A stretch of DNA of 64,000 bases from Acidobacteriota bacterium (GCA_032229975.1 JAVXVG010000017.1:87557-151556); one strand, 5' to 3'. Counted from the stretch's first letter, positions 6,135-61,518 are shown. Made by a program: numbers and translations. Notes: a model not told the origin generated them from the sequence alone.

Positions 6135-6614
6135 ATGACGCGACTCAAGCTCGGCCTGATTGCACTCGCCTGTGCGCTCATAGCCTTCGCCTGCACGACG
6201 AACACGAACACCGGCACTGCGACGAACAGCACACATGCGTCGAACGCCAATACGACGACGAACGCCGCGCCCGCAAACGCCGCCGCCAACACGAACGCGC
6301 CCGCCACGAACGACGCGCTCGCCTCCGCACGCTCGACCTACAACAACGCCTGCGCCAAATGCCACAAGGAGACTGGCGAGGGCGGCGTCGCAGACATCGA
6401 CGGCGAGAAGCTGCGCGTGCCCGGCTTCAAAGGCGGCCACGCGCTCAAGCACTCGGACGCGGACTACGTCAAGAAGATCAACGAAGGCGGCGACGGGATG
6501 CCCAAGTTCAAGGGCCGACTCACGCCTGAACAGATCGACGGGCTCGTCCACTTCATCCGCACGGAGTTTCAGGCCGGCACAAACGCCGCAGGCACGACGA
6601 ACACGAACAAGTAA
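6135..6614 (+). CDS. class I c-type cytochrome, lipoprotein with an Asn/Thr-rich linker
   Basis: Lipobox-like signal LIAFAC, haem motif CAKCH, and a distal GGDGMPKF Met ligand region. Confidence 0.8.
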   Translation: MTRLKLGLIALACALIAFACTTNTNTGTATNSTHASNANTTTNAAPANAAANTNAPATNDALASARSTYNNACAKCHKETGEGGVADIDGEKLRVPGFKGGHALKHSDADYVKKINEGGDGMPKFKGRLTPEQIDGLVHFIRTEFQAGTNAAGTTNTNK

Positions 6615-6655
6615 GCACACGCCATGCCAATCGCTCCTGCAAGCGATTAGCTCGC

Positions 6656-6729
6656 GCACCCGTAGCTCAGTTGGATAGAGCATCTGACTTCGAATCAGAG
6701 GGCCGCAGGTTCGAGTCCTGCCGGGTGCA
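6656..6729 (+). tRNA. tRNA-Arg(TCG), canonical-looking
   Basis: Acceptor GCACCCG/CGGGTGC, D-arm GCTCAGTTGGATAGAGC, anticodon loop CTTCGAA, T-arm GCAGGTTCGAGTCCTGC. Confidence 0.9.
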
Positions 6730-6770
6730 TCACTTTCAAAGTTCCGCATACACGATCATTTAACAGAATC

Positions 6771-6814
6771 TAAAAGAGAAGCGGCGCGCGACTCGAACGG
6801 TTGCGCGCCGCTTC
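6771..6814 (-). terminator. Rho-independent terminator of the nuclease-helicase operon
   Basis: Stem GAAGCGGCGCGC/GCGCGCCGCTTC (6778-6789 / 6803-6814). On the minus strand it is followed by TCTTTTA. Confidence 0.6.
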
Positions 6815-6854
6815 CACATTACTTTTCCGGCGACTCTTCCATGCTCCTGCCGTG

Positions 6855-9800
6855 TCAGCAGGTCTCTTCCGCGAGCGAGCGCACGACGACTCGTTGACCA
6901 CCGATCTCGCCTTCCCACAAAACCGTCGCCGCGCATTCGTGCCTCAAATATTTCCAGAGCGCGCTGCGTTCGTACTCGTCGAGGTCTGCGGGGATGAGAT
7001 CGAAGACGGCGCGCGAGGCGACGACGACGAGCTTGCGTCGCGGTCGCGAGACGGCCACCGTCAAACGACGCGGCTCAAGCAAGAAACCGCTCTCGGCTTG
7101 CGCGAACTCTCGATCTGAGACCGTCGCGGAGACGATGATGAGATCGCGCTCGCCGCCTTGAAAACGCTCGACCGTGTCGATTGATTCGGCGAGTTCCGGC
7201 AGGCGCGTTTGCAGCAGAGACTTCTGCGCGCGGTGCGGCACAACGACGCCGATGCCGCGTCGCGCGTCGAGTCCGAGTTGATGTGTCGCGACGCGCGCGA
7301 TCTCTGTCACGAGTGTCGCCTCGTATTCGTTCGACTGCTGCGACCCCGACTCATCGTGCTCGACGACGACGAGGGCCTGTTCGGGCCTGAAGACCGCCGC
7401 GAGCCACCCCGTCAAACCTTCGGGCGCGTTGAGCCGCAGTCGATTCCCGGAGCGGAAGTTGACGCCGTCTTGCGCATAGACGTGGCGGCGCAGGAAGCCT
7501 GCGATCTCCGTGGGGATGCGAAAAGATTCGTCGAGCGCGTCGCTGCGAAAGCCCGTCTCGCGCAAGGTTTCGAAGATCGAGAGATGTGGGCGCGCGTGTT
7601 TCATGTCGCGCCGGCTCTCCTCGTCCCATGCGTGCGCGAGTATCGGCGGCATCTGTCGATGATCGCCGATGGCGACGAACTGGCCGTCGTCGCGCAAGAA
7701 CGCGGCGGCTGTCAGAGCCTCCGCGATGCCCATCTGCGAAGCTTCATCAACGACGACGAGATCGAAAAACTTCTCCGACCAATCGACCGCGCGACCGCGC
7801 GCCGCGCCCTGCTTGATCAACTTGTAGAGTCCACCCGGCGTGCCGCCGACGACGAGCAAAGGCTCTGAGAGCAGCGCGTCCCACTGCTCAGCCGCGCTCG
7901 ACTCCTCACCACCATCAGCGAATATTTTTTCCACGCCTTCGGTTGCCTGCTCTCCCGCATCCGCGCACACCTTCGCGATCTTCAAAGTCGCGAGCGGCGC
8001 GAGACGCGTGTCGATGTTTGCGCCGTCTTGCGTCGCAGCGTCTCGCAACTCACGCGCGCGGCGTGCGATGCTCGCGAGCGCGATCTGCGTGGCGGCGTGA
8101 GTCCTTGCGCAGACGGCGATGCGGAAAGGACGTGCGGGCGTTGCGAGTGCGAGGGCGCGCACGAGGGCCATGAAGCCGAGCGTGTGGCTCTTGCCCGTGC
8201 CGGGTGGCCCCTGTAGGACGAGGACGCGATCCGCGACCGCTTCGCCGATGACGCGGCGTTGCGCGTCTGTGAGTCCGCGTGGCTGTTGCGTGCGCGATGC
8301 AAGGTCGGCGATCTCTACAGCGTCGCGCAGGCGTCGCGGGCGGATCGGTCGCGGACGCTTCGCTTCTTTCGCGTCGCAGAGCCAGCGATAGAGATTGTTG
8401 GTCGCACTGTTGCGGCAGGCGTCGAGAAACTTGTCGGCGTTGAGATCGTCCGCCATCTCGTCAATAGTGAAGAACGCGCCCGACTCCGGCTTGTGCCGGA
8501 CGTGCGAGAAGCGGAAGTCAGAATTCTTGAACGTCATCGAGAGCAGGCGTAGAGAGAGACGGCCCGCGTCGAACTCTTCGACGATGCCAAGCCGACCGCG
8601 CAACAGTTTCCACGCAGGAAGCGCGCTACCACCTTCACCGGCCAGAGGATTGAGCACGACCCAGTCGCCCGCACGAAACTTCGCGACCGGAGCGTGTGCA
8701 TTCGCACTCATCTCATCGAAGATTTTGCTCGCCGAGTCTTCAGCGTCGTTCGTATTGTGCGCGTCACCAGCGTCGAACGTGAACGTTGCGCGCTCGCCTC
8801 CGGCTGACTTTTCGTAAGCGTCGCAGCGCAGGATGAGCGTGCGGCCCGTTTGCGCGCGCTGTTCGGGCGGGAGCGCGAGATGCAGGAGGAGTGTCTGCAC
8901 CTTCGCATGATGTTCGAGGTAGAGAAAATCTTCTAGCGCGCGACTTAAGGGAACGGACGCGGGATCGATCTCCGTCTCGTCGAGGCGCGAGAGCGTGAGC
9001 GGTCGTTTCTCGACGTGGCGATTCTTCTGCTTGAAACTCTCTTCAATGTGGCGCAGCGCACGGCAGCGCAGCAAGGCGAGCGCGCGCACGTCTTCCATCG
9101 TCACGCCGTTGAAGTTGCTCAGGTAGTTGCGCTCCTGCTCCGTCGGCTCGGCTTCTCCACCCAACCGGCCCCACGCGGCGTAGGCGTATTCGAGCGGAAT
9201 CTCCGTGCCGAAGCGCGCTGACGACTCGACGACGTGCGCGCCGCCTTCTTTGTCGGCGGGCGCAAAGAGTCCGGTCTGCGTGTCGCGCGCGAAGGAACGT
9301 GTGGCATCGAAGACGCGTGCGCGAAACTTCGCAGATGTGTCGTGCGCCGGGTCGTCCCAGCGAAAGCCAAGCTCGCGGGCCACCTCGTAGAGATTCTGGC
9401 AGACGTGCGCGAGGTTCATGCGCTCGCAGACTTCGTCGGCGAGGAAAGAGATCATCGACTGCGTGAGCGCAGGATGCGACGTGAGTAGATCGTAGAACGC
9501 AGGAAGCGCGCATAGCGTCTCGAAGTGGCGCGCGAGCGCGTCGAGCAGCGAGCGTTGACTGCGGCGGTCGAAGAGATAGATGTGAACGGGTGCTTCCCTT
9601 CCGTCAGCCGCGCGCGCGATCTGAGGCAGGAGGCGTGTGATCCATTCGATGAGCAGAGCGCGCTCCGCATCTGTGTCGGGCGGAGAGTCGGTCGATTCTA
9701 TAACTTCAGCCGAGCCGCAGGGGCCCGCGACGAGCGCGGACAGAAGATAGACGCGATCTTCGAGATGATCGCGCTGTGCGTCGATGAAGACTTTAACGAG

Positions 9801-10988
9801 GTTCGGGTAGGTCGCATCGTCGGGCAACGATCCCCACTCGGAGCCGTAGAGGAAGCGTCGCGCTTCGACCGACGTGTCGAAGCGGCGCAGCGCGGCGCGC
9901 GCACGCTGAACGAGCACGGGCAGTCGGCGCGCGAGCACGGGCCGCGCGCCGATCTTTTGCGCGTCCGTCTCACGACCGGGCGCGGTTGTTAAAGTGTGGC
10001 CGGAATAGTTCAACAGGCCCGCGAGTGAGCTGAGCGTCGCGAAGCCTTCGTCGAGGAGCGCGCTCTTTTCATTCGAGGTGAGGGTCGGGACGAGCGAGAG
10101 GTCTTCGCGCTCTGCGGCGCGGACGAAGCAGAGCGAGTTGTAGGGACAGCCGTCGCAATGCGAGCCGAGATGAAACGCAGCCGCGTCGGGCATCACACGT
10201 GCGGCGCGAGAAACGTCCGAGTCATTTGCCGAGACGAGCTGCGCGATCTCGTCGAGATAGAGTGAGAGATCGAACTTGACGAACTCGTCGGGCCCGATCC
10301 GATGCGCGCTCGCACGCGCACCGGGATCGGCTGCCGCGTCGCGCGCCTCCTGACCTTCAATCGACGCACGCCCTTCGCTAGTCTCTTGTTCAATGCGGGT
10401 CGTGTTCGTCTCTTCCGTCTCAGACTTTCGCGAGAGCACCGCGCCATCGATTGATGTCACGTTGAGGCCCGCTTGTCGAACGGCGTCGAGCAACAGACGC
10501 GCGTAGAAGGCCACTTGCAGGCGAAAGCCTACGGTCTCGCGGCGGCTCGCCTTGATATCGAGAACCGTGAGTGAGACATCATTGCCTTCGCGTTCGACTT
10601 GAATAAGATCGGCGTAGCCTTCACACGACCAGCCGCCGATCAAACCTTCGAGTCGTGGTTGATAGTAGAAGCTGCGCCCGTCCTGTTGTTCACCGAGCGC
10701 GACGATAAAGGCCGCAGCGGACGTGCCGCGCAGATCGCGCACGCGCTCACGCGCGCCGAGCGCATCGACGATCTCGCGCTCGAACGACTGGCCCGCGCCG
10801 GAGAGCAAAGGCGAGAGCGCATCGAAGGGGACACGGTAGCGCGCGGCGAGCGACTTCGCCTCTGACGGGAAGAGTACGAAACGCAGATATTGCTCGCAGC
10901 GATTGCGCTGCACGTACTGCGCGAGCCGTTGCGCGCTGAGCGTGCGCTCGGTCTTGAAGCTCTGCGCGGAATCGGAGGCGTGAGTCAT
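6855..10988 (-). CDS. fusion protein: Cas4/Dna2-like Fe-S PD-(D/E)XK nuclease, central RNase-H-like region and Upf1-like SF1B helicase
   Basis: 1377 aa. N-terminus: C31 plus C278-x2-C281-x5-C287, D127, D144-I-K146 and QVAFY. C-terminus: Walker A GPPGTGKSHT (about aa 927), VVVDEASQM, GDHRQMPP, FQGGERDLIIVS and RRLTVAVSRPR. Confidence 0.85.
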   Translation of the reverse strand: MTHASDSAQSFKTERTLSAQRLAQYVQRNRCEQYLRFVLFPSEAKSLAARYRVPFDALSPLLSGAGQSFEREIVDALGARERVRDLRGTSAAAFIVALGEQQDGRSFYYQPRLEGLIGGWSCEGYADLIQVEREGNDVSLTVLDIKASRRETVGFRLQVAFYARLLLDAVRQAGLNVTSIDGAVLSRKSETEETNTTRIEQETSEGRASIEGQEARDAAADPGARASAHRIGPDEFVKFDLSLYLDEIAQLVSANDSDVSRAARVMPDAAAFHLGSHCDGCPYNSLCFVRAAEREDLSLVPTLTSNEKSALLDEGFATLSSLAGLLNYSGHTLTTAPGRETDAQKIGARPVLARRLPVLVQRARAALRRFDTSVEARRFLYGSEWGSLPDDATYPNLVKVFIDAQRDHLEDRVYLLSALVAGPCGSAEVIESTDSPPDTDAERALLIEWITRLLPQIARAADGREAPVHIYLFDRRSQRSLLDALARHFETLCALPAFYDLLTSHPALTQSMISFLADEVCERMNLAHVCQNLYEVARELGFRWDDPAHDTSAKFRARVFDATRSFARDTQTGLFAPADKEGGAHVVESSARFGTEIPLEYAYAAWGRLGGEAEPTEQERNYLSNFNGVTMEDVRALALLRCRALRHIEESFKQKNRHVEKRPLTLSRLDETEIDPASVPLSRALEDFLYLEHHAKVQTLLLHLALPPEQRAQTGRTLILRCDAYEKSAGGERATFTFDAGDAHNTNDAEDSASKIFDEMSANAHAPVAKFRAGDWVVLNPLAGEGGSALPAWKLLRGRLGIVEEFDAGRLSLRLLSMTFKNSDFRFSHVRHKPESGAFFTIDEMADDLNADKFLDACRNSATNNLYRWLCDAKEAKRPRPIRPRRLRDAVEIADLASRTQQPRGLTDAQRRVIGEAVADRVLVLQGPPGTGKSHTLGFMALVRALALATPARPFRIAVCARTHAATQIALASIARRARELRDAATQDGANIDTRLAPLATLKIAKVCADAGEQATEGVEKIFADGGEESSAAEQWDALLSEPLLVVGGTPGGLYKLIKQGAARGRAVDWSEKFFDLVVVDEASQMGIAEALTAAAFLRDDGQFVAIGDHRQMPPILAHAWDEESRRDMKHARPHLSIFETLRETGFRSDALDESFRIPTEIAGFLRRHVYAQDGVNFRSGNRLRLNAPEGLTGWLAAVFRPEQALVVVEHDESGSQQSNEYEATLVTEIARVATHQLGLDARRGIGVVVPHRAQKSLLQTRLPELAESIDTVERFQGGERDLIIVSATVSDREFAQAESGFLLEPRRLTVAVSRPRRKLVVVASRAVFDLIPADLDEYERSALWKYLRHECAATVLWEGEIGGQRVVVRSLAEETC

Positions 10989-11082
10989 GCGAGGGAACGG
11001 AGCGGGTTGTGAAAGTCAGGATGAAATTTTGATTCGATTGATTGAAGCAAGTTGCTTGTCGAAGTCTGACGCGGACGCAACG

Positions 11083-11781
11083 TCAACTCTTCTTGGGCCG
11101 GACGACGGTGAGCGTCGCCTGCTCGCTCTGCTCGACGGCGGCGGCGACGAGCCGGCGCACGTCCGCGTCGGCACCCGATTTTTCGGCGAGAAGTTTTTCG
11201 AGACTATCTTTCACGGGCGTGAACTTCACGCTGCGCTCGAAGAGAGATGAGAACGTCTCTGCATCGAGCGCGTCGGCGAGCGCAGAGACTTTCGCCTCGT
11301 CGCATTTCCAGTTGGTTCGGTAACTACACTTGACCGCGCCGTCTTCACCGCGCAGCGTCACAGAGTTGGCTACGCGTTGACGGTAGAGCGCGGCGAGTTT
11401 CAAACGCTCTTTGATCTCATCCACACGTTCCTTGATGCGCTTCTCCTCTGCGTGGAGGCGCACGTACTCGGCGACGAGTCCTTCGACCTCCGCCTCTGCG
11501 GGCGCGTCTTCCGGCGCGACGCCTGCGGCTCGCACGTCGCAGCCCGCGCACATCTGTTGGCCTTCTCTCTCCACCGCCTCGTCTTGCGCGACGAGACCGC
11601 CGCACGCCGCGCACGCGACGTAAAAGTCATTAGCGCACGACGCGCATAGAGGCTCGCCGCGAAGGTTGACGACCGATGGCGCGGTCGCTTCGAGACACTC
11701 CGCGCAAACCGACGCGCCCGCGTGCGGCTCGCGTGCCTGCGCGCTTGAATCGTGTGCCTGACCCGGTTCGATGTTTTCCAA
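11083..11781 (-). CDS. zinc-ribbon / coiled-coil protein, first gene of the nuclease-helicase operon
   Basis: 232 aa with a TTG start preceded by GGAG. It has CxxC-type pairs (CAEC, CASC, CAAC, CAGC), then a charged helix EEKRIKERVDEIKERLK and an alpha/beta C-terminus. It ends 95 nt upstream of the helicase start on the same strand. Confidence 0.6.
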   Translation of the reverse strand: MENIEPGQAHDSSAQAREPHAGASVCAECLEATAPSVVNLRGEPLCASCANDFYVACAACGGLVAQDEAVEREGQQMCAGCDVRAAGVAPEDAPAEAEVEGLVAEYVRLHAEEKRIKERVDEIKERLKLAALYRQRVANSVTLRGEDGAVKCSYRTNWKCDEAKVSALADALDAETFSSLFERSVKFTPVKDSLEKLLAEKSGADADVRRLVAAAVEQSEQATLTVVRPKKS

Positions 11782-12068
11782 CGTGGCTACTCCTGCTCAG
11801 TGGCGCGGGCGGCGCGTGGCGGGTTGTTCATGACCGAGAGCCCTTCGATCAATTCTCTCGCTGAAGCGCGCCGGAGTTTCGCGAAGGCGCGAAGAATCTA
11901 GCAGAGGCGGCGCGGCGAAGTCGAGACGCGCATGATCAAATCGAGATAGGTGAAGGAGGCATCGCGTTGTGGCGCAAGTCTCGCCTGCGCGCGAAAGTTC
12001 TTTTGTCGTGGTGAGACAACTCGGCGACGAAGTTTGGTATCGAACTCGCGGTAGATGAAAGAAAGTGC

Positions 12069-12100
12069 TTGACACGACAAAGTGGTCTGCCGTATATATA
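12069..12100 (+). promoter_or_regulatory. sigma70-like promoter facing the ncRNA region and tRNA array
   Basis: TTGACA at 12069-12074, an 18-nt spacer, then TATATA at 12093-12098. Confidence 0.4.
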
Positions 12101-12104
12101 CGCA

Positions 12105-12484
12105 CCCGCGCGGAAGCTATTGGGCGCGCGCGAAAGATGAAACTACGATGTTGACGAACCAGACAAGACAGAGACGAACGCGCATCGGGGCCGGGACGGC
12201 TTCGATGTATTCGTGCATCTCGCCGGCCCGTGGTGGCGTCGTCGCCGCCGCGCGTGGCGCGATGTGTCTGAGTTCGTTACCTACCTATCAACTCGGTGGC
12301 GAATCCGGACACGATAGCGCGAAATCCATTAGGAATTTGCGTTTCGCGGATCAGGATAACCAGAGTTAGTCGTGGGAGAGCGGGTTCTCCCGCTCTCCAA
12401 TCCAAAAGCTAAAAGTTAGTCGGATTGATCGGAGCGGGAAAGCTTCTCTCGGATGCGAGAAGTGGCCCGCTCTTTTCTTTTGTT
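12105..12484 (+). ncRNA. candidate structured non-coding RNA, unit 1 (unknown class)
   Basis: Lies between the promoter above and a terminator (GAGCGGG 12432-12438 / CCCGCTC 12466-12472, then TTTTCTTT). Internal hairpins: GGGCCGG/CCGGCCC (12188-12194 / 12223-12229) and a 10-bp stem GGAGAGCGGG/CCCGCTCTCC (12375-12398). No credible ORF. Confidence 0.3.
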
Positions 12485-12509
12485 GTTTGACAACTGAATT
12501 TTTTGAATG

Positions 12510-12652
12510 GAAGAGAGCAGAGAGACTGCCTTCTGCGGGCGACGACGATCCTGCCGGACTCTGGCAAGCACGCGCGGACCAGCGTCGCCCTTAGGAGAAG
12601 TGTGCGCCGAAGTGTGTCTCCACGCGCGCTCTCTCGGCCCTCTTCTTTTTTT
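12510..12652 (+). ncRNA. candidate structured small RNA, unit 2 (unknown class)
   Basis: A long-range closing helix (12510-12524 with 12631-12645, 13 of 15 positions paired) is followed directly by T7. Nested helices: GGGCGAC/GTCGCCC (12537-12543 / 12584-12590) and GGAGA/TCTCC (12594-12598 / 12617-12621). Confidence 0.3.
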
Positions 12653-12667
12653 ATCATAGCAAATTTC

Positions 12668-12754
12668 GCAGACGTGGCTGAGCGGCAAAGGCGGCTGACT
12701 GTAAATCAGTTTGTCACTTAGGTGACTTCGGAGGTTCGAGTCCTCTCGTCTGCA
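12668..12754 (+). tRNA. tRNA-Tyr(GTA), class II
   Basis: Acceptor GCAGACG/CGTCTGC, anticodon loop CTGTAAA, long variable arm GTCAC-TTAG-GTGAC, T-arm GGAGGTTCGAGTCCTCT. Confidence 0.85.
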
Positions 12755-12877
12755 TCGAGACATTTGAGGGGCCTGATGTAACAGCAGCACATCGATCTCC
12801 AAGATCGTCGCTGAAGGGATCGAGCCTCGCGTGCTCCTATCGAATTTTATATCGACGCGTCGAAGCGTCGTTTGCGC

Positions 12878-12961
12878 GGAAGGTTCGGCACGTGGCAAGC
12901 CAAGCGGTCTTGAAAATCGTGAGAGGTAACGCTCTGGCGGGTTCGACTCCCGCACCTTCCT
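12878..12961 (+). tRNA. tRNA-Ser(TGA)-like, class II, divergent
   Basis: Acceptor GGAAGGT/ACCTTCC, 3-bp D-stem GGC/GCC, anticodon loop CTTGAAA on a weak stem with two G-U pairs, variable arm AGAG/CTCT, T-arm GCGGGTTCGACTCCCGC. The discriminator is T rather than G. Confidence 0.6.
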
Positions 12962-12965
12962 TATT

Positions 12966-13017
12966 CCGACTGCTGCGCTACTTCATCGTTCATCGTTCCG
13001 CCTTCATCGTTTCATTC
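12966..13017. repeat. Hairpin repeat family B (GATGAAC/GATGAAG-type), right half only
   Basis: CGACTGC...CTACTTCATCGTTCATCGTTCCGCCTTCATCGTTT matches the loop and right arm of the copies at 15871 and 17615. The left arm is absent, and the element abuts the 3' end of tRNA-Ser. Confidence 0.6.
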
Positions 13018-13092
13018 GAACCCGTAGCTCAGTGGATCAAGAGCGCGACTCTGCGAAGGTCGAGGTCGCAGGTTCGAGTCCTGCCGGGTTCA
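13018..13092 (+). tRNA. tRNA-Arg(GCG)
   Basis: Acceptor GAACCCG/CGGGTTC, D-arm GCTCAGTGGATCAAGAGC, anticodon loop CTGCGAA, T-arm GCAGGTTCGAGTCCTGC. Confidence 0.85.
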
Positions 13093-13099
13093 TCCGCAC

Positions 13100-13170
13100 G
13101 CCGACGTAGCCCAACGGTAGAGGGCCGCGCTGTGCACGCGGAAGCTGGGGGTTCGACTCCCTTTGATCCA
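13100..13170 (+). tRNA. tRNA-His(GTG)-like, probably a pseudo-tRNA
   Basis: The anticodon arm is perfect (CCGCG-CTGTGCA-CGCGG) and the T-arm is GGGGGTTCGACTCCCTT. The 5' GCCGACG has no complementary 3' strand (TGATCCA), and the D-stem/position-26 region is one nucleotide short. Confidence 0.4.
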
Positions 13171-13199
13171 TCTCGCTCACACGACATCAAACTTTTCTT

Positions 13200-13271
13200 G
13201 GAACGGTGGCTGAGAGGTCAGGCACTGGATTGTCGATCCAGACGATGCGAGTTCGAGCCTCGTCCGTTCCG
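13200..13271 (+). tRNA. tRNA-Asp(GTC) with a class-II-type D-arm
   Basis: Acceptor GGAACGG/CCGTTCC, discriminator G, D-arm GCTGAGAGGTCAGGC, anticodon loop TTGTCGA, 5-nt variable loop, T-arm GCGAGTTCGAGCCTCGT. Confidence 0.8.
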
Positions 13272-13281
13272 TCATGCACGC

Positions 13282-13355
13282 GCCTTCGTAGCTCAAACGC
13301 GCAGAGCGGCTGGCCCTTAACCAGTCAGGTCTGAGTTCAAATCTCAGCGAAGGCA
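13282..13355 (+). tRNA. tRNA-Lys(CTT), non-canonical (C33, no GG in the D-loop)
   Basis: Acceptor GCCTTCG/CGAAGGC, D-loop AAACGCGCA, anticodon arm GCTGG-CCCTTAA-CCAGT, T-arm CTGAGTTCAAATCTCAG. Confidence 0.75.
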
Positions 13356-13366
13356 TTTCCCGTTTC

Positions 13367-13440
13367 GACGGAGTGTAGCCTAGAGGCTTCGAGTCGCTTG
13401 ATCCGAGATCAAGACGGCGTGGATTCCTCTCGACTCCGAT
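13367..13440 (+). other. tRNA-sized structured spacer occupying a tRNA slot (not foldable as a canonical tRNA)
   Basis: Acceptor-like pairing CGGAGT/ACTCCG (13369-13374 / 13433-13438). TA at positions 8-9. Perfect palindrome CTTGATC-CGA-GATCAAG (13397-13413). No T-loop. Confidence 0.3.
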
Positions 13441-13452
13441 CACTTCACATTC

Positions 13453-13530
13453 GCATCGTTGGTCCAGCCCGGTTGAAGACGCGGCGTTGCCAGCGCCGAG
13501 ACCTGAGTTCGAATCTCAGACGATGCACCA
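13453..13530 (+). tRNA. tRNA-Gly(GCC) with a class-II-type D-arm and encoded CCA
   Basis: Acceptor GCATCGT/ACGATGC, D-region GTCCAGCCCGGTTGAAGAC, anticodon arm CGGCG-TTGCCAG-CGCCG, T-arm CTGAGTTCGAATCTCAG, then A-CCA (13527-13530). Confidence 0.8.
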
Positions 13531-13540
13531 ACACACACGC

Positions 13541-13616
13541 GGGCGGTTAGCTCAAAACTGGATAGAGCACCACGCTTCGAACGTGGACGTTGCGGGTTCG
13601 AGTCCTGCACCGCCCT
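13541..13616 (+). tRNA. tRNA-Arg(TCG), second divergent copy
   Basis: Acceptor GGGCGGT/ACCGCCC, D-arm GCTCAAAACTGGATAGAGC, anticodon arm CCACG-CTTCGAA-CGTGG, T-arm GCGGGTTCGAGTCCTGC. Confidence 0.85.
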
Positions 13617-13628
13617 CTCATTCTTCGC

Positions 13629-13703
13629 GCGACCGAAACTCAAACGGATACGAGTGCGAGTTTCCCAAACTCGATGCTGCGGGTTCGAGTCCCGCCGGTC
13701 GCT
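13629..13703 (+). tRNA. tRNA-Gly(CCC)
   Basis: Acceptor GCGACCG/CGGTCGC, discriminator T, anticodon arm CGAGT-TTCCCAA-ACTCG, T-arm GCGGGTTCGAGTCCCGC. Confidence 0.85.
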
Positions 13704-13715
13704 TCTCACCTTCAT

Positions 13716-13788
13716 GCACGCGTAGCCAAGCGGCGAAGGCGCAGGTCTGCAAAACCTGTCAACGTCGGTTCGAATCCGACCGCGTGCT
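13716..13788 (+). tRNA. tRNA-Cys(GCA)
   Basis: Acceptor GCACGCG/CGCGTGC, discriminator T, anticodon arm CAGGT-CTGCAAA-ACCTG, T-arm GTCGGTTCGAATCCGAC. Confidence 0.85.
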
Positions 13789-13944
13789 TCTTCGGCGACG
13801 AACGCGAAGATTCATTCTTCAACGTCGTCGCGCGTACAAGGCTTGCGAGCGGCGGCGCACCCCGCGTCGAGCCTCACCACCGCTCGCACTTCCCTTCTCA
13901 TTCAAGACGGAAGGCAACACTGACGAAAGGAGGTTTTACGAACC

Positions 13945-14514
13945 ATGTCGCTCAACGGTCGGGTTCTCTTGCTCAACCAAACTTACGAGCCGCTCGGCAC
14001 GGTCGGCGTGGCCCGCGCGATTGTAATGCTCTTCAAGAACACCGTCTCGGTCGAAGAGTGGGACGGCGACCGCGTCCTTCGCACGCCGCGCACAGAGTAT
14101 CCCGTGCCCTCTGTCATGCGCCGGCGCACCTACGTCAACGTGCGCCGACGCCGCGATGCGACGGGCTCGAAGCGCGTGAGAATTTACATACGCGACGGGT
14201 TTCGCTGCCAGTATTGCGGCGAGCGCAAGAACCCTGTGGAGCTAACGCTCGATCACATTCTCCCGCGCTCGCGCGGCGGCAACCATCAACCGATCAACGT
14301 CGTCACCGCGTGCGTCGCCTGCAACCAGCGCAAGGGCAATCGCACGCCCGGGGAGGCCCGTATGCCTCTGCTCACCACGCAGATGGCCCTGCACGCGCAG
14401 CTCGAACGCGTCGTGCTCTGCCACTACGCCGAGGCGCGGCCGGAGTGGAGAAAGTACATCTTCACTGAAGACGTGAACGACGATTCGCGTGCGAAGCGAT
14501 CACGGACGGCTTGA
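13945..14514 (+). CDS. HNH endonuclease (COG1403-type) embedded in the tRNA array
   Basis: 189 aa. Strong RBS AAAGGAGG 8 nt upstream. Motifs CQYCG...LTLDHILPRSRGGNH...VTACVACNQRKGNRTP (HNH with two CxxC pairs). Confidence 0.85.
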   Translation: MSLNGRVLLLNQTYEPLGTVGVARAIVMLFKNTVSVEEWDGDRVLRTPRTEYPVPSVMRRRTYVNVRRRRDATGSKRVRIYIRDGFRCQYCGERKNPVELTLDHILPRSRGGNHQPINVVTACVACNQRKGNRTPGEARMPLLTTQMALHAQLERVVLCHYAEARPEWRKYIFTEDVNDDSRAKRSRTA

Positions 14515-14544
14515 ATGAGGGCCGGCGGCCGTCGGCCCTCATTC
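14513..14544 (+). other. GC-rich stem-loop at the HNH stop codon (no U-tract)
   Basis: GAATGAGGGCCG / CGGCCCTCATTC, a 12-bp stem with an 8-nt loop. tRNA-Val follows 13 nt later. Confidence 0.45.
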
Positions 14545-14556
14545 ATCCCTCAAACC

Positions 14557-14629
14557 CGCCGGTTAACTCAACTGGAAGAGTGCCTGTCCTACAAACAGGA
14601 AGTTGAAGGTTCAAATCCTTCACCGGCGA
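14557..14629 (+). tRNA. tRNA-Val(TAC), C33 variant
   Basis: Acceptor CGCCGGT/ACCGGCG, D-arm ACTCAACTGGAAGAGT, anticodon arm CCTGT-CCTACAA-ACAGG, T-arm GAAGGTTCAAATCCTTC. Confidence 0.8.
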
Positions 14630-14640
14630 TCAACTTTATC

Positions 14641-14725
14641 GGGGCGCACGGCTCGTCGCGCGCAGAACGGCAGACTGCGCGTGATCGTGGAGCGAGAGAC
14701 TTGCTGGCGTTGGTCTCGCGCCCCG
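14641..14725 (+). ncRNA. tRNA-like structured element (acceptor-like stem, no T-loop or anticodon loop)
   Basis: 7-bp stem GGGGCGC/GCGCCCC (14641-14647 / 14718-14724). GCTC...GAGC helix encloses a 9-bp hairpin CGCGCGCAG-AACGGCAGA-CTGCGCGTG. The 3' hairpin GAGAC-(12 nt)-GTCTC abuts the acceptor strand. Confidence 0.35.
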
Positions 14726-14738
14726 ACCAAAGCTCTCG

Positions 14739-14812
14739 CGCGGAGTAGCTCAGTTAGGCAGAGCACACGTCTCATAAATGTGAGCGCGCGGGTTCGAGTC
14801 CCGCCTCCGCGA
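14739..14812 (+). tRNA. tRNA-Met(CAT), elongator type or possibly Ile2
   Basis: Acceptor CGCGGAG/CTCCGCG with 1-72 paired. The anticodon stem CACGT/ATGTG lacks the initiator GGG/CCC pairs. Loop CTCATAA, T-arm GCGGGTTCGAGTCCCGC. Confidence 0.85.
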
Positions 14813-14815
14813 TTC

Positions 14816-14890
14816 GGGTCGGTAGCTTAACTCGGCAAAAGCGACAGTCCTGCAAACTGTTAGATGTGAGTTCGAATCTCACCCGATCCA
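14816..14890 (+). tRNA. tRNA-Ala(TGC), C33 variant
   Basis: Acceptor GGGTCGG/CCGATCC contains the G3:U70 Ala identity pair. Anticodon arm ACAGT-CCTGCAA-ACTGT, T-arm GTGAGTTCGAATCTCAC. Confidence 0.85.
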
Positions 14891-14991
14891 TTACTCGTGC
14901 GAAAAATTATCGTGGACGCTACTTCGCGCGCCGCGCATTTGCTAACATCGCGCCAACGCTCTGCGATCATAAACGTGCGGACTTCAATGCG

Positions 14992-15882
14992 ATGGAGATC
15001 AAGATCAAAACGCCGCCCGACTTCAACTTCAAGCGCACCGCGCTCAGCCACGGCTGGAGCGATCTCGCGCCCTTCAAGCTCAACGACGAGTTCTCCATCC
15101 TCACGCGCATCGTCGATCTCGGCGCGAGGTCGAAGCCCATCGCCGTGAAGATCGCTGGCGCGAAACACGGCTTGCGTGTGAGCTTCGAGGGCGAGTTATC
15201 CGCGCAGTCGCTCGTTAAGCTCAAACGCGACGTGCGCCACATGATGCGACTCGACGACGGACTCGATCCCTTCTACGCCGCGCTCGCGCGTGAGCCCGCT
15301 TTCGCTTGGGTGGCCCGCGCGGGCGCGGGCCGTCTGCTGCGTGCGCCGACGGTCTTCGAGGACTTGGTCAAGTCTCTGGCGACGACGAACTGCTCTTGGT
15401 CGCTCACGAAGATCATGATCTCGCGTCTCGTCGAAAATCTCGGCCGCCCCGCGCGCGGCGGCGGCCACACGTTCCCCACGCCCGCCGCGATGGCCGAAGC
15501 TCCCGAAAAATTCTTTCGCGAAGAGATGCGCTCCGGCTACCGCGCGCCCTACTTCACAGAACTCGCCGAGCGCGTCGCCTCCGGCGAGATCGATGTAGAA
15601 AGCTGGCTCACATCAGAACTCTCGACAGATGAACTCAAGCGCGCGATGAAGCGCGTCAAGGGCATCGGCGACTATGCGGCTGAGAACTTGTTGAAGCTCG
15701 TCGGTCGCTACGACGTGCTGGCCCTCGACTCTTGGGTGCGCGCAACCTACGCGCGCATCCACAATAAGGGTCGCGCCGCCGCCGACAAAAAGATCGCACG
15801 CCACTACTCGCGCTTTCAAGAATGGCGCGGTCTCGCACTCTGGTGCGACATGACGAAGGACTGGATCGAAGATGAACGATGA
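14992..15882 (+). CDS. HhH-GPD superfamily DNA glycosylase (AlkA/Ogg-like)
   Basis: Start is reset to MEIKIKTPP because the ORF-track start overlaps tRNA-Ala. HhH-GPD region ...LKRAMKRVKGIGDYAAENLLKLVGRYDVLALDSW. Confidence 0.75.
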   Translation: MEIKIKTPPDFNFKRTALSHGWSDLAPFKLNDEFSILTRIVDLGARSKPIAVKIAGAKHGLRVSFEGELSAQSLVKLKRDVRHMMRLDDGLDPFYAALAREPAFAWVARAGAGRLLRAPTVFEDLVKSLATTNCSWSLTKIMISRLVENLGRPARGGGHTFPTPAAMAEAPEKFFREEMRSGYRAPYFTELAERVASGEIDVESWLTSELSTDELKRAMKRVKGIGDYAAENLLKLVGRYDVLALDSWVRATYARIHNKGRAAADKKIARHYSRFQEWRGLALWCDMTKDWIEDER

Positions 15883-15956
15883 AGTAGAAACGATGAACGA
15901 TGAAGTATGAACAGGCCGACTGCATCGTTCGTCGTTCATCGCTCAGACTTCATCAT
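15871..15956. repeat. Hairpin repeat family B, full copy between convergent genes
   Basis: GATGAACGATGAAGT occurs twice (15871-15885 and 15892-15906), followed by GGCCGACTGC and imperfect inverted copies ...CGTTCATCGCTCAGACTTCATCAT. It overlaps both flanking stop codons. Confidence 0.7.
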
Positions 15957-16604
15957 TTCCTGTCCTGTCGGGCAGAGATCAAGTAGGAAGCACTCGGCGC
16001 AGAGCGGCGTGCGGGCTTTGCAGACGGCGCGGCCGTGCGCGATGAGCAGATGTGAGAAGTCGATCCACTCCTTCTGCGGAATGAGTTCGCAGAGGTCTTG
16101 TTCGATCTTTTCCGGCTGTACTTCGGCGGTGAGTCCGAGTCGCTGCGAGAGGCGCGAGACGTGCGTATCAACGACGACGCCGGACGCGATGCAGTAAGCG
16201 TTGCCGAGCACGACGTTCGCCGTCTTGCGCGCCACGCCGGGCAGTTGCAACAACTCTTCCATCGTTTCGGGAACGCGCCCCTCGTGTCGCTCCAAGATCA
16301 TCTTGCACGCGCCCTGAATGGCCCTCGCCTTGTTGCGAAAAAAACCCGTCGAGCGTATGTCCTGCTCAAGCTCCTCTTGGGCCACCTTCAAGTAATCATC
16401 CGCACGACGATACTTGCGAAACAGATCGGCGGTAACGATGTTCACGCGCTCGTCCGTGCACTGCGCCGAGAGGATCGTGGCGACGAGAAGTTCGAGCGGG
16501 CTCGCATGATTCAGCGAACAGCGCGCGTCCGGGTAATTTTTTTTGAGGCGGCCCGTGATCTTACGCGCGCGTTTCCTCTCTTCGCTCAACTTCTCTCCAC
16601 TCAT
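15936..16604 (-). CDS. nth: endonuclease III
   Basis: 222 aa. LVATILSAQCTDERVN, the HhH motif and the C-terminal 4Fe-4S cluster C-x6-C-x2-C-x5-C (CKARTPLCAECFLLDLC). Confidence 0.95.
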   Translation of the reverse strand: MSGEKLSEERKRARKITGRLKKNYPDARCSLNHASPLELLVATILSAQCTDERVNIVTADLFRKYRRADDYLKVAQEELEQDIRSTGFFRNKARAIQGACKMILERHEGRVPETMEELLQLPGVARKTANVVLGNAYCIASGVVVDTHVSRLSQRLGLTAEVQPEKIEQDLCELIPQKEWIDFSHLLIAHGRAVCKARTPLCAECFLLDLCPTGQEMMKSER

Positions 16605-23584: not shown

Positions 23585-26500
23585 CTATGGCAGCGCCTCG
23601 ACGATGACGAAGAAGCGGAAGTTTCCTGCCCCCTGCACGCCGAGCAGGAAATTGAAACTCTTCGACGAGCCGGGCGCGAGCGGGGAGAGCAACGAGATTG
23701 TCCCCGCCGAGAGCGTCGAGTTGTAAGCGCCGCCGTTGGGTTGCGTTGGAGGCTCCTCAAGTGTCAACGCCTCGGCCGTCTTGGAGCTGCCGCCCGTGAT
23801 GCTGATGACGCTTGTCGTAGAAGTGCGCGCCCTCAGGTCTGCCGTGCCCGGAGAAGTAGTGGCTTGGGGGAACGTCGTGATGTCCACGATGCGAAAGCGC
23901 AGACGTGTTACCACCCCGCCCGTGTTGTTCGTGAACGTGCGACGAATGGTGAGCGTGCCGAAGGTCGAGTTGTTGAACGAATCGCCCGTGAAATCGCGCT
24001 CGCGGTTGGGTGGGCTGGCGCTAGAGAGGGCCGGGTCAAAGAGCGTTGACTTAATCGTCCCGCCACGATTCACCGGAGAGGTGCTGTTCTCAGGGCCCGG
24101 AGCGCCGAGGCGTTGCTGTCCGCCTGTGGGCGTGCCGTTGGTATCGACTAAGAGGAAGTCTGCTGCGTTGTTGTCCGTGTCCTTCGGCAAGCCCGTGATC
24201 GCCATGTCGCGATAGAGGCTGTGCTCGATTGCGGCTGAAGCGCCTCCGGCAAGCGGCGCGTAGCCCGCGCCCTCCCTGTAGAGCGTGTTGGTATCGGCAC
24301 TCGAGCCGACGGCGTCGATCCGGTTGACGAGTGTGAAGTTCGCGGCGGTCGCCGTGTTGAAGATGGCGATGCCGGAGTTGAACGGAATGTCGGTGGCGTA
24401 GGTGGCGTCGCCGGTGGCGTTGCCGTTGCCCGCAGGGTAGGCGGCTAAGGAGTAGCCAACCGAGTTGGTGCACAGGTAGTGCCCGCGCGCGGGGATAACC
24501 GTCCCCGTAGGAATCGTGCAGCGCAACGTCGGCACTCCGTCGTTTAGCGTGGTGTTCGAGGATGAAACCACTCCGTAACCCGCCGAGCCGTCGCCCGTCA
24601 AGACGGTGAAGGGCGAGGTCGAAGGATTATAGATTTCGATGAACTCATCGTTCGCGCCGTTCGGACCATGCAGCCGGAACTCGCTGATGTTGAGATCGCC
24701 CGCACCTGCGGGAACCGCGACCTTCGCCCACTGCGTGCCCCAACGACTGTCGTTCGAGCCCGTGCCGGGCGGGATGCGCGTACCCGCGAACTCCTGAATG
24801 GTCCACATGTCGCGGTCGTTGACCGGATCGACGTGCGTCGCGCTGTAGTCGCCCCAGCGATTGACCGTGCCGCTGAAGGTCTTCGAGTAGTAGTCCTCGC
24901 CCGCCTTGTAGATGAACGGGTCGCGCGTCGTGCCTGCGGCGTCGCCGTTGAGACGCACTGAGTAACCGGCGGAGGCAAACTGGTTCGAAGCGAACTGCGA
25001 GTAGCCGATCATCATGTCGTCGTTCTTGTTGACGGAGAGCGACGAGTAGGCGTAGAGCTTGCCGCCGTTAACGAGCGTCGCCGTCGGGTCTTGAATGCGC
25101 CCGCCATCAACGAAACTACCCGTCGTGTCAATCTTCGTCCACTGCACCGCGACGCGGGAGCCGGTGGTGATGGAGCCCCCCGCCGGAAAGATGACGGTCT
25201 GCGAGTACCAGATGTTGCCGTTGCGGAAGACGGGATTGCTGCGTACCTGCGAGTCGCCCGCGTCCATCCTCCTGATCGTTGCCGGGCAGGTGTGAGCCGC
25301 GGTCGGGAATCCCGCGATGCACTGCTGCGAGAGGGCTTCGGCTCCTGACTGCGTCCAGCCGCCGCCGGTGCGTGTCTTTACCGCTCCGATGGCGAGCACC
25401 GGGGCACTGGGCGTGCCCGTGATGGTGCCCAGATCGTAGGTCGCGCCACCGCTCGACAGGTGCTGCGGGAGGTAGAGCGTCGGCTCGTTGGCGTCGAAGG
25501 TCTTGGCGGGGTGCAGACAGAAACCGATGGCTGCGCCGGTAAAGAGCGTGGCCGTGGCGGTGCCGGCGCGCGACGCCGGGTAGTCGAGCACGAGCACCTT
25601 CCCCTCGACGAAGCTGCCGTTGCAGGTCGTCGCGCCGCTCGTGCCAGTGGCCTGAATCTGGAACATGTTCATCGAGACTGTGATCCAGTTCTTGTTGAAG
25701 CCGAGCATCGGGAAGTCAGCCCACTCGCCGCACGCATTTTGCCCCGCAGGCGGGGCTGCGGCGACGGCGCTGCCGACGGTGAAACGATAGACGTTATAAC
25801 TGCCCGACGGGTCGGAGGTCTGCGAGACGGCGATCTCGATGGAGGAGTTTGCCGTCTGCGGGTTCGAGTCCTCGGCGAGAATCCAACGGTTGTTGTACGG
25901 GTCGTAGGTGATGCGTGGATCGAAGAAGCCAGAGCCGCCCGACCCCGTCCAGAAAGTGTCGGACGAGACGGTCGTGAGCGGCGCGCCCGTGAGCTTGTCC
26001 TGAACGCGATAGTTGCTGTTTGTGTTGACGAAAACTTTGTCCAGACCGACCGCGCCTTGCGTGTCTGGCGGAATGTCGAACTCGGTCGAGCCGATCTTGG
26101 GGCCATCCTCCTGACCCAGATAGGTTGAAGATGGCGATGGCGAAGCCACCATCGGCTGGAGCACGGAATCAACCGGCGCGGCGGGCGGTGCGAACTCGCC
26201 CTGCGGCGTCTCAGGTTCCGCAACCGTTCCCGGCGCGGGCATCACTCTCAAGGTCTCCCCTTGAGCGGCTCTGCTGCCAACTTTGTTGCCCGCCTTTTTC
26301 TTGTCAGCCATCTTTGCCAACTGATCGAAATTGACGACGCTGACCGACACGGGCGACACGCGTGAGCCTTGAACGTCGCCGCGCGTCTGCATGGGCGCAG
26401 GCGTCTGCGCGGGCAGCGGAGCATACACACTACTCACGTTCTTCGCCCCATCGCGCTTCTGCTTTTGCGCCGCGACGGGCTGCACGCCCGACAGCAGTAG

Positions 26501-26662
26501 GCACTGCGCCAGCAGCGACAGGCAGAGCGCGACTCGCACGGATTTTCTTAACCTGCGATATGAGTCCGCGCGAAACGTTCTAACAAATTTTTTCAGGGAA
26601 TCCCTGCTTGATGTCGCCAACATATTGGTGGCATTGCAAAGGAGGAGGGTGCTTCTCTTCAT
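23585..26662 (-). CDS. large secreted protein with a C-terminal lamin-tail-domain (LTD) module
   Basis: 1025 aa with a signal/anchor region. LTD signature NISEFRLHGPNGANDEFIEIYN. The last 368 aa align with the C-terminus of the 1581-aa protein at 31484. Confidence 0.8.
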   Translation of the reverse strand: MKRSTLLLCNATNMLATSSRDSLKKFVRTFRADSYRRLRKSVRVALCLSLLAQCLLLSGVQPVAAQKQKRDGAKNVSSVYAPLPAQTPAPMQTRGDVQGSRVSPVSVSVVNFDQLAKMADKKKAGNKVGSRAAQGETLRVMPAPGTVAEPETPQGEFAPPAAPVDSVLQPMVASPSPSSTYLGQEDGPKIGSTEFDIPPDTQGAVGLDKVFVNTNSNYRVQDKLTGAPLTTVSSDTFWTGSGGSGFFDPRITYDPYNNRWILAEDSNPQTANSSIEIAVSQTSDPSGSYNVYRFTVGSAVAAAPPAGQNACGEWADFPMLGFNKNWITVSMNMFQIQATGTSGATTCNGSFVEGKVLVLDYPASRAGTATATLFTGAAIGFCLHPAKTFDANEPTLYLPQHLSSGGATYDLGTITGTPSAPVLAIGAVKTRTGGGWTQSGAEALSQQCIAGFPTAAHTCPATIRRMDAGDSQVRSNPVFRNGNIWYSQTVIFPAGGSITTGSRVAVQWTKIDTTGSFVDGGRIQDPTATLVNGGKLYAYSSLSVNKNDDMMIGYSQFASNQFASAGYSVRLNGDAAGTTRDPFIYKAGEDYYSKTFSGTVNRWGDYSATHVDPVNDRDMWTIQEFAGTRIPPGTGSNDSRWGTQWAKVAVPAGAGDLNISEFRLHGPNGANDEFIEIYNPSTSPFTVLTGDGSAGYGVVSSSNTTLNDGVPTLRCTIPTGTVIPARGHYLCTNSVGYSLAAYPAGNGNATGDATYATDIPFNSGIAIFNTATAANFTLVNRIDAVGSSADTNTLYREGAGYAPLAGGASAAIEHSLYRDMAITGLPKDTDNNAADFLLVDTNGTPTGGQQRLGAPGPENSTSPVNRGGTIKSTLFDPALSSASPPNRERDFTGDSFNNSTFGTLTIRRTFTNNTGGVVTRLRFRIVDITTFPQATTSPGTADLRARTSTTSVISITGGSSKTAEALTLEEPPTQPNGGAYNSTLSAGTISLLSPLAPGSSKSFNFLLGVQGAGNFRFFVIVEALP

Positions 26663-57071: not shown

Positions 57072-57264
57072 TCGGTGCGACTTTCGTTGGAATCGGCGTC
57101 TCGTCTCGTCCGGTTGCTCCGCTATAAAGCACAGCCGATAGAGCGCGGCGTGGGAGAGCACACTATATGTTGGTGAGCCGCCGATGTCAACAAAAGCATC
57201 AGGCGGCGCGGTTTTACTGTCTGGGGATGGGAGAGTTAGCCCGGCGGCTTGCGCCGCGCGCACG

Positions 57265-61324: not shown

Positions 61325-61518
61325 TTGTAACTCAACAAGGATGTGCAGTCGATCTGTCTTTCCGAGCGCAGGATTATACGCGAAGTCCGCCCGTCGCGCG
61401 CGCGAAGTCGCGAGCAGCGCGGACTTGAATTTGACTTCGTGCCCTGTTTGACGTACAAGCGTGCGCAAGTCCCTGCCTCGCTTGCTCGGAAAAAAACTTT
61501 CGGAGGTGTCCCCTTATC

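Follow-up and report, generated by a model that had tools for sequence, protein, structure and literature searches.

Among bacterial enzymes, Bad of Geobacillus (G. stearothermophilus, WP_053413574) is the sole characterised example of the layout described here. It was reported to be a monomer with about 3 Fe per protein and to show ATPase activity dependent on single-stranded DNA (ssDNA), 5'-3' translocation and unwinding, and endonucleolytic cleavage of ssDNA with a preference for 5' overhangs; its central domain is conserved and was described as having a completely unknown fold (PMC7430649). This is the one biochemical study of bacterial DNA2-like helicase-nucleases, and the cellular role and the central domain were left undescribed in it. 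Eukaryotic Dna2 (PDB 5EAX, 5EAN) is built along similar lines, with an Fe-S-stapled PD-(D/E)XK nuclease N-terminal to an Upf1-like SF1B motor and a barrel and stalk between the two. The present analysis concerns a gene in a stretch of 64,000 nucleotides from an Acidobacteriota bacterium (GCA_032229975.1 JAVXVG010000017.1:87557-151556), referred to below as the window, together with the gene directly upstream, which codes for a predicted zinc-finger protein (the partner). The 1377-residue product of the first gene is best placed among the DNA2-like helicase-nucleases, as a member yet to be characterised, and the two genes are inherited together at a housekeeping locus throughout Blastocatellia.

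The original prediction, made from the sequence alone, had described the gene as a nuclease-helicase fusion. The 1377-residue open reading frame (ORF) and every residue and motif named in it were found at the expected positions, including VHIYLFDRRSQ at residues 468-478. Sequence searches with the whole protein retrieved 271 full-length homologues of 54-84% identity, and residues 1-880 alone matched 551 cluster representatives (131 of them at E <= 1e-30), so that a chance ORF is excluded. The full-length relatives recovered with residues 1-880 were mostly 1240-1550 residues long and had the same Pfam layout. Pfam matches in the window protein itself were PDDEXK_1 (residues 89-287, E 9e-6), AAA_11 and AAA_12 (E 4e-23). 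The domain layout (Table 1) was drawn from two AlphaFold2 (AF2) models together with residue conservation. The first model covered residues 1-880 (mean predicted local distance difference test score, pLDDT, 84; predicted template modelling score, pTM, 0.80) and the second residues 380-716 (pLDDT 87, pTM 0.84). Conservation was scored in a wide set of 69 relatives, reaching down to 27% identity, and in a narrower alignment of 58 sequences (A3). Fold searches against PDB (Foldseek) gave matches that were weak in score yet mutually consistent for both models; those of the residue 1-880 model were to Sen1/SETX/Upf1, to AddB/Cas4/Exo5 and to NurA/RNase HI/Argonaute. A single polypeptide thus carries the catalytic residues of a RecB/Cas4-type nuclease, a four-cysteine pattern, a YprB-type RNase H fold, a stalk and barrel, and a complete set of SF1B motifs.

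Table 1. Features of the nuclease-helicase gene and its immediate surroundings (positions in the window; HhH, helix-hairpin-helix).
Feature	Position	Strand	Residues	Basis or remark
Nuclease-helicase, whole gene	6855-10988	(-)	1377 aa	ATG start; Fe-S-type nuclease, RNase H-like domain and SF1B helicase in a single polypeptide; ORF list, translation
Cas4/AddB-type PD-(D/E)XK nuclease	10104-10988	(-)	1-295	Pfam PDDEXK_1, residue conservation, AF2, fold matches
Helical, HhH-like linker (LSLVPTLTSNEKSALLDEGFATLSSLAGL)	9864-10103	(-)	296-375	Sub-threshold TIGR03491 match, AF2 helices
YprB-type RNase H-fold domain	9354-9797	(-)	398-545	AF2 topology, Foldseek against PDB, BFVD, conservation
Conserved alpha/beta extension, motif RFGTEIPLEYAYAAWG (591-607)	8949-9353	(-)	546-680	Conservation
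Stalk helices and beta-barrel (Upf1/Sen1 1B-like)	8349-8948	(-)	681-880	AF2 secondary structure, fold matches
SF1B (Upf1/Dna2-like) helicase core	6858-8291	(-)	900-1377	Pfam AAA_11/AAA_12, PDB matches, motifs
Upstream partner gene	11083-11781	(-)	232 aa	94 bp from the nuclease-helicase start
tRNA-Arg(TCG)	6656-6729			Stand-alone tRNA flanking the nuclease-helicase
tRNA array	12668-14890	(+)

The N-terminal domain has the motifs of RecB-family nucleases, namely acidic motifs I-III, a D/E-x-K element and QxxxY, located at D127, D144-I-K146 and Q158...Y162. Residues E70, D127, D/E144, K146, Q158 and Y162 are near-invariant in the 69 relatives. The sequence also has the four-cysteine iron-staple pattern (C31 plus C278-x2-C281-x5-C287), each cysteine being kept in 64-66 of the 69, and by analogy with Dna2 and Bad the four residues probably hold a 4Fe-4S cluster. 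The domain was modelled with pLDDT >85 except in a disordered insertion (residues 191-229), and its fold matches, all weak, were to AddB, Cas4 SSO0001 and Exo5. The Pfam match, the conserved motifs and the four cysteines agree with the Fe-S-type PD-(D/E)XK nuclease that had been predicted. Because the catalytic residues are near-invariant across the 69 relatives, the nuclease and the motor are very probably active.

AddB, Cas4 and Exo5 share with this domain the cysteine pattern (one N-terminal Cys and C-x2-C-x5-C), the nuclease motifs and the weak fold matches, but they either stand alone or have as partner a helicase domain that is of SF1A type or inactive, whereas the present gene has no CRISPR or AddA association. 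A published phylogenomic survey of Cas4 describes links to UvrD-Cas4 and COG1205, not the present architecture. A CRISPR Cas4 was considered as an assignment for the domain and rejected: the PADLOC Cas4 profile matched at E 0.006 only, and no cas genes were found among the neighbours. The 12 kb on each side hold tRNA and housekeeping genes, and no CRISPR array was seen there, no dedicated repeat search having been made.

The nuclease is followed by a helical, HhH-like linker. Across the cysteine cluster and this linker the protein matched TIGR03491 (the TM0106 RecB-like nuclease family) at 33.8 bits over residues 240-338, below the cut-off of 97.45. The sub-threshold match recurred in 7/7 family members tested, the six others scoring 15-35 bits, again far under the cut-off. 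The TM0106 family and the YprB-type proteins (e.g. CroV E3T4R0) resemble the N-terminal ~700 residues in the order of their parts, a Cas4-like nuclease, an HhH-like segment and a YprB fold. The TM0106 proteins differ in length (~460 residues) and in having no helicase, and membership in TIGR03491 is excluded by model score. PF13482 did not match the present protein, and a search for literature on TM0106/COG2251 found none.

The original prediction had pointed to an RNase H-like segment between nuclease and helicase. In the AF2 models residues 398-545 form such a fold, with the topology beta-beta-beta-alpha-beta-alpha-beta and pLDDT 90-98. The best PDB matches of the central model were RNase HI, DnaQ and the PIWI domain of Argonaute, all weak (E 5e-3 to 5e-2; template modelling score 0.3-0.48 per target). 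The clearest fold result came from giant-virus proteins in BFVD, which aligned with the residue 1-880 model over about 690-880 columns (E 1e-9 to 6e-5) and include a 'YprB ribonuclease H-like domain-containing protein'; on these alignments the N-terminal ~700 residues are predicted to form a Cas4-like nuclease followed by a YprB-type RNase H module. D407, E442, H469 and E519 are near-invariant in the 69 relatives and lie at or near catalytic positions. At the DxE position of DEDD exonucleases the protein has D403-A-Q405, and E405 occurs in 8/69 relatives. To judge by these residues, the domain could be either a nuclease or a binding module.

Beyond the RNase H fold, R592, P598, L599, W606 and R641 of the extension are invariant in alignment A3, and R592 and Y601 are near-invariant in the 69-sequence set as well. 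The extension (residues 546-680) had no Pfam match even at E 1 and no PDB fold match attributable to it; a Pfam scan of residues 297-880 with E up to 1 likewise gave none. For the stalk and barrel, the best PDB folds of the residue 1-880 model were Sen1, SETX and Upf1 (~190-200 columns, probability 0.99-1.0). Since the fold-search output gives no query ranges, we infer that these matches belong to the stalk/barrel segment.

The predicted Upf1/Dna2-like SF1B helicase was borne out by Pfam, by PDB matches and by the full motif set. Motifs I, Ia, II, III, V and VI were all located, among them GPPGTGKS (927-934, Walker A lysine K933), DEASQ (1081-1085), GDHRQMPP (1108-1115), FQGGERD (1276-1282) and RRLTVAVSR (1307-1315). 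The helicase residues, like those of the nuclease, are conserved in the 69 relatives. When the protein was searched against PDB by sequence, the helicase part alone was matched, to Dna2 (E 7e-13), IGHMBP2, ZNFX1 and Upf1.

Two predicted disordered insertions were noted in the window protein (10302-10418, residues 191-229, and 8691-8771, residues 740-766). The former is acidic, of low complexity and within the nuclease domain; the latter lies within the beta-barrel. The protein is longer than most homologues below ~75% identity (about 1320-1340 residues), and its closest relatives are as long or longer (1377-1410 residues).

Compared with Bad, as that enzyme has been described in print, the protein is likewise a single polypeptide (1245 residues in Bad, 1377 here) with the same order of parts: an N-terminal RecB-family four-cysteine nuclease, a central region of several hundred residues without Pfam domains, and a C-terminal SF1B helicase. 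The distance from nuclease motif III to Walker A is similar, D150-K815 in Bad and D144-K933 here, where it takes in ~65 residues of disordered insertions. Each family has archaeal relatives and a sporadic distribution in bacteria. They differ in that a Type III-like methyltransferase adjoins the Bad genes in Geobacillus and none is present at this locus, in that the present family has a lineage-specific zinc-finger partner, and in that the central region, undescribed in Bad, can here be resolved into an HhH-like linker, a YprB-type RNase H fold and an extension. Similarity to Dna2 in sequence is confined to the helicase core, and Dna2 has no RNase H-fold domain, HhH-like linker or zinc-finger partner. 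An enzyme of this type is to be expected and is of little surprise to a specialist. The family combines a Bad-like layout with a fixed housekeeping locus in one Acidobacteriota class and a dedicated partner, and is easy to follow. A central region readable as a YprB-type RNase H fold, a conserved D-E-H-E set and the partner are the useful points; they supply concrete mutants and a second protein for experiments bearing on repair versus immunity in such enzymes.

The partner gene is on the same strand as the nuclease-helicase, as had been predicted for a Zn-ribbon-type gene. Its product has eight invariant cysteines, which are predicted to form two Cys4 zinc sites (C26/29/46/49 and C57/60/78/81). 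The gene was directly upstream of the nuclease-helicase at 17/17 related loci that hold upstream DNA, and also at three further loci (L029-L031). The family comprises 119 proteins, confined to Blastocatellia and none with a Pfam domain. Sequence and profile searches of PDB returned weak LIM/GATA-like zinc-finger matches only, and for the C-terminal domain no match by either method. The gene upstream of the Oscillochloris homologue (see below) was compared as a possible partner homologue and rejected as unrelated.

Gene order was examined in one genome per species, a scan that yielded 19 loci in 19 assemblies and reaches close relatives only. To judge by the names of its homologues, the window belongs to Pyrinomonadaceae (Blastocatellia, Acidobacteriota). 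The nuclease-helicase was detected at one locus per assembly in 19/19. Where enough DNA was available, the order was: BNR, IndA, endonuclease III, HhH-GPD, ~11 tRNA genes, HNH, ~19 tRNA genes, the 232-residue zinc-finger gene, the nuclease-helicase, a short variable stretch, tRNA-Arg(TCG), cytochrome c, two unknown proteins, a phosphoribosyltransferase and tRNA-Arg(CCT). This order is collinear in the related Pyrinomonadaceae, and the predicted flanking by tRNA-Arg and a tRNA array was found in the window. At one locus (L003) identity with the window is 65% for the nuclease-helicase, against 59-83% for the flanking genes. Adjacency of zinc-finger gene and nuclease-helicase extends to less closely related Blastocatellia (57-58% identity), where the two occupy another conserved housekeeping locus without the tRNA array, with a pterin dehydratase on one side and isocitrate dehydrogenase and PurE/PurK on the other. 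The GC content of the gene and its flanks is unremarkable, and the neighbour proteins, products of housekeeping genes, gave no matches in PADLOC. The original prediction had seen in this position an accessory island; collinearity, neighbour-like divergence, plain GC, such neighbours and the second, array-free locus speak against it. A scan of positions 6500-12700 for promoters and terminators found sites no more numerous than in shuffled sequence.

Outside Acidobacteriota, the next clade (27-45% identity) is in Chloroflexota (Anaerolineae, Thermomicrobiales, Ktedonobacterales, Roseiflexaceae, Oscillochloris). In six Chloroflexota contexts the gene stands alone, with mostly metabolic neighbours and with neither the zinc-finger partner nor tRNA arrays. 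Among plasmid records one homologue was found on a Chlorohelix plasmid, and seven haloarchaeal megaplasmids carry full-length distant homologues (23-25% identity; 24% whole-length, E 1e-91). The UniRef name of the Oscillochloris protein (P0360) begins 'bifunctional RecB family nuclease/DEAD/D', and the RefSeq name of two haloarchaeal homologues is 'bifunctional RecB family nuclease/DEAD/DEAH box helicase'. A link to a second helicase is a recurrent feature of distant family members. On one haloarchaeal megaplasmid (L028 4855-13545) genes for an RNase H-like protein, a DEAD/DEAH helicase and the homologue follow one another in one direction; in an Anaerolineae genome (L021 7694-14332) a Ski2/DSHCT helicase gene is directly upstream of the homologue; and in one protein of 2628 residues (P0323) the whole architecture is fused to SNF2/RapA-type helicase domains. 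In Oscillochloris sp. ZM17-4 (L020 14275-23212) a DUF5107 gene overlaps the stop codon of the homologue and is followed by a complete Wadjet system (JetABCD) on the other strand; a phage-type integrase gene lies ~9 kb upstream.

The fixed collinear housekeeping position throughout Blastocatellia, a divergence equal to that of the neighbours, and the lack of partner methyltransferases, toxins or mobility genes argue for a role in the processing of chromosomal DNA in this lineage. We therefore favour, at somewhat better than even odds (about 0.55), a DNA2-like helicase-nuclease that serves the cell's own chromosome in repair-type processing and not in immunity; its likely substrates are DNA ends, flaps or stalled-fork intermediates in repair or recombination. 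By analogy with Dna2 and Bad, the enzyme would engage DNA at a free 5' single-stranded end or flap, the strand would run past the nuclease before reaching the motor, the SF1B motor would move 5' to 3' on ATP, and the Fe-S-stapled nuclease would cut the tracked strand endonucleolytically. More speculatively, the RNase H-fold domain might add a second nuclease activity or instead bind the other (3') strand or RNA-DNA hybrids, and the zinc-finger protein might act as a DNA-binding or regulatory subunit.

Several points weigh against this assignment. Polarity, Fe-S cluster and substrate are all transferred to the family by analogy. The helicase core is about as near to IGHMBP2, ZNFX1 and Upf1 (44-48 bits) as to Dna2 (50 bits), the former being mostly RNA or RNA/DNA helicases. 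As the ExoI-like motif reads DxQ in most members, the RNase H-fold domain may not be a nuclease. Members of the family are unevenly spread over phyla (Blastocatellia, Chloroflexota, haloarchaeal megaplasmids), a pattern typical of accessory or defence genes. One haloarchaeal homologue lies among integrase and ParA genes, beside an RNase H-like protein and a DEAD helicase; a gene with the annotation 'restriction endonuclease' comes after the Haladaptatus homologue; and the Wadjet system adjoins one Chloroflexota homologue, that of Oscillochloris. The authors of the study of Bad, finally, suspect a restriction-like function for their enzyme (PMC7430649).

The last of these points, with the patchy phyla, the plasmid-borne archaeal relatives and the Wadjet neighbour, keep alive a role in defence, in which the protein would be a stand-alone anti-phage or anti-plasmid nuclease-helicase (of the Nhi-like concept, or as proposed for Bad) that recognises, unwinds and degrades replication or recombination intermediates of invaders and has become fixed in the Blastocatellia chromosome. 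The annotated restriction gene in Haladaptatus and the Chlorohelix plasmid point the same way, as does a small variable spot just downstream of the gene in Pyrinomonadaceae and in other Blastocatellia, which in the latter holds TIR-like and Roc/COR genes. Nhi, Hhe and Hna do resemble the protein in concept, a nuclease and an SF1 helicase in one chain, and the profiles of DpdJ, MkoA, Hhe, ProA and PLuB match its helicase core. These matches, however, are limited to the shared SF1B core (DpdJ over 45-484 of 2112 profile positions; MkoA; Hhe at 20 bits), and NCBIfam defence models scored 33-106 bits against cut-offs of 999-2000, so full-length membership is not supported; PADLOC, NCBIfam and PHROGs searches of the protein returned only generic helicase-core matches or weak Cas4/TM0106 ones. 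Unlike the defence enzymes, the protein has no DUF4011, Vsr or PLD-type nuclease, and its lineage shows no defence-type neighbourhood. The Nhi/Hna likeness first proposed thus holds for architecture and not for the defence models. No methyltransferase, toxin or other defence gene adjoins it in the window or at the related loci examined, gene order at the locus is kept and its divergence is like that of the housekeeping genes around it, five of the six Chloroflexota contexts are metabolic, and a tblastn search of a phage collection found no homologue. We regard the defence role as possible, with a chance of little more than one in four. Of the two roles between which the gene had been left, defence or repair, repair-type chromosomal processing is the better supported, and no system-specific defence model matched. 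Within Blastocatellia the gene largely behaves as a single-copy syntenic core gene without links to defence or mobile genes; this does not extend to the whole phylum, because the family is patchy across phyla.

An enzyme of RNA or RNA-DNA hybrids, acting in R-loop removal or transcript processing and perhaps tied to the tRNA array, seems improbable. The helicase core is about equally close to the RNA helicases Upf1, IGHMBP2, Sen1 and SETX, the RNase H-fold domain retains conserved acidic residues and a histidine, and in Pyrinomonadaceae the gene pair lies beside an array of 28-32 tRNA genes. That adjacency, however, is seen in one sub-lineage only, since other Blastocatellia and Chloroflexota have no arrays nearby, and the RNase H-fold domain is nearer to the YprB/DnaQ exonuclease branch than to RNase HI. 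To our knowledge, every characterised Fe-S staple RecB-type nuclease (AddB, Dna2, Cas4, Exo5, Bad) acts on DNA. Still less credible, and close to refuted, is the idea that the pair is cargo of a mobile element with the tRNA array and HNH gene, integrated beside tRNA-Arg. Long tRNA arrays with a homing endonuclease have been reported to spread horizontally (PMC8421152), and the block does adjoin a tRNA-Arg gene; yet neither an integrase nor repeats nor any further mobility genes came to light, in other Blastocatellia the pair stands free of the array, the block is flanked by the same genes in all related genomes, and the GC content of gene and flanks is not outlying.

A bolder form of the repair-type role, which we consider unlikely, would make enzyme and partner a self-contained machine for double-strand-break resection, in which a single SF1B motor serves two different nucleases. 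Cutting of the 5' strand would fall to the Fe-S domain, that of the 3' strand or of RNA-DNA hybrids to the RNase H-fold domain with its unusual D-E-H-E site, and the machine would replace RecBCD/AddAB-type enzymes in Blastocatellia and many Chloroflexota. If true, the central domain of Bad-type proteins would thereby acquire both a structure and a function.

The tRNA array of the window is split by a conserved HNH endonuclease gene (13945-14514, (+); Pfam HNH_5, 9e-17), whose product is 75-81% identical across relatives, above the conservation of the nuclease-helicase. The array has 12 tRNA genes in the window and 28-32 in relatives, where nearly all amino acids are represented, and it looks as if ~18 tRNA genes had been lost (compare L003 4722-8365, L009 and L015). 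It duplicates the stand-alone tRNA-Arg(TCG), and its tRNAs score 54-68 bits against 72-75 for the two stand-alone genes. Together with the HNH gene it resembles the 'long array' with homing endonuclease of PMC8421152, a study that placed Acidobacteria among the phyla with accretion-type arrays only. A link between the enzyme and the array was considered and rejected, the pair occurring without it in other Blastocatellia and no arrays lying by the Chloroflexota homologues.

The 3' end of the nuclease-helicase is separated from tRNA-Arg(TCG) by 125 bp in the window (6730-6854) and by 1.6-5.7 kb in relatives (L003 13976-15614; L005 7189-12948; L015 13970-19675; L016 13719-18570; L018 13988-19583). 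The genes in this spacer differ among relatives and code, for example, for a 1118-residue lamin-tail-domain (LTD) protein and a PPC/TIG protein; in the Pyrinomonadaceae relatives this variable spacer beside the tRNA gene held secreted LTD and PPC/TIG-type proteins, and no defence genes were seen in it.

Beside the array, two HhH-GPD glycosylase-type genes stand back to back (14866-15882, (+), and 15936-16604, (-)), both conserved in relatives; one is a clear endonuclease III with an Fe-S loop, and the other, of 338 residues, has a weak match of 25.2 bits that narrowly misses the cut-off. Elsewhere the window reads as ordinary chromosome, with genes for SMC, RecQ and peptidases. No Pfam domain was matched at E 1e-5 by three large ORFs on the (-) strand (57265-59235, 59189-61468 and 23585-26662; 656, 759 and 1025 residues). 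The first two are directly upstream of the SMC gene (53067-57263) and on the same strand.

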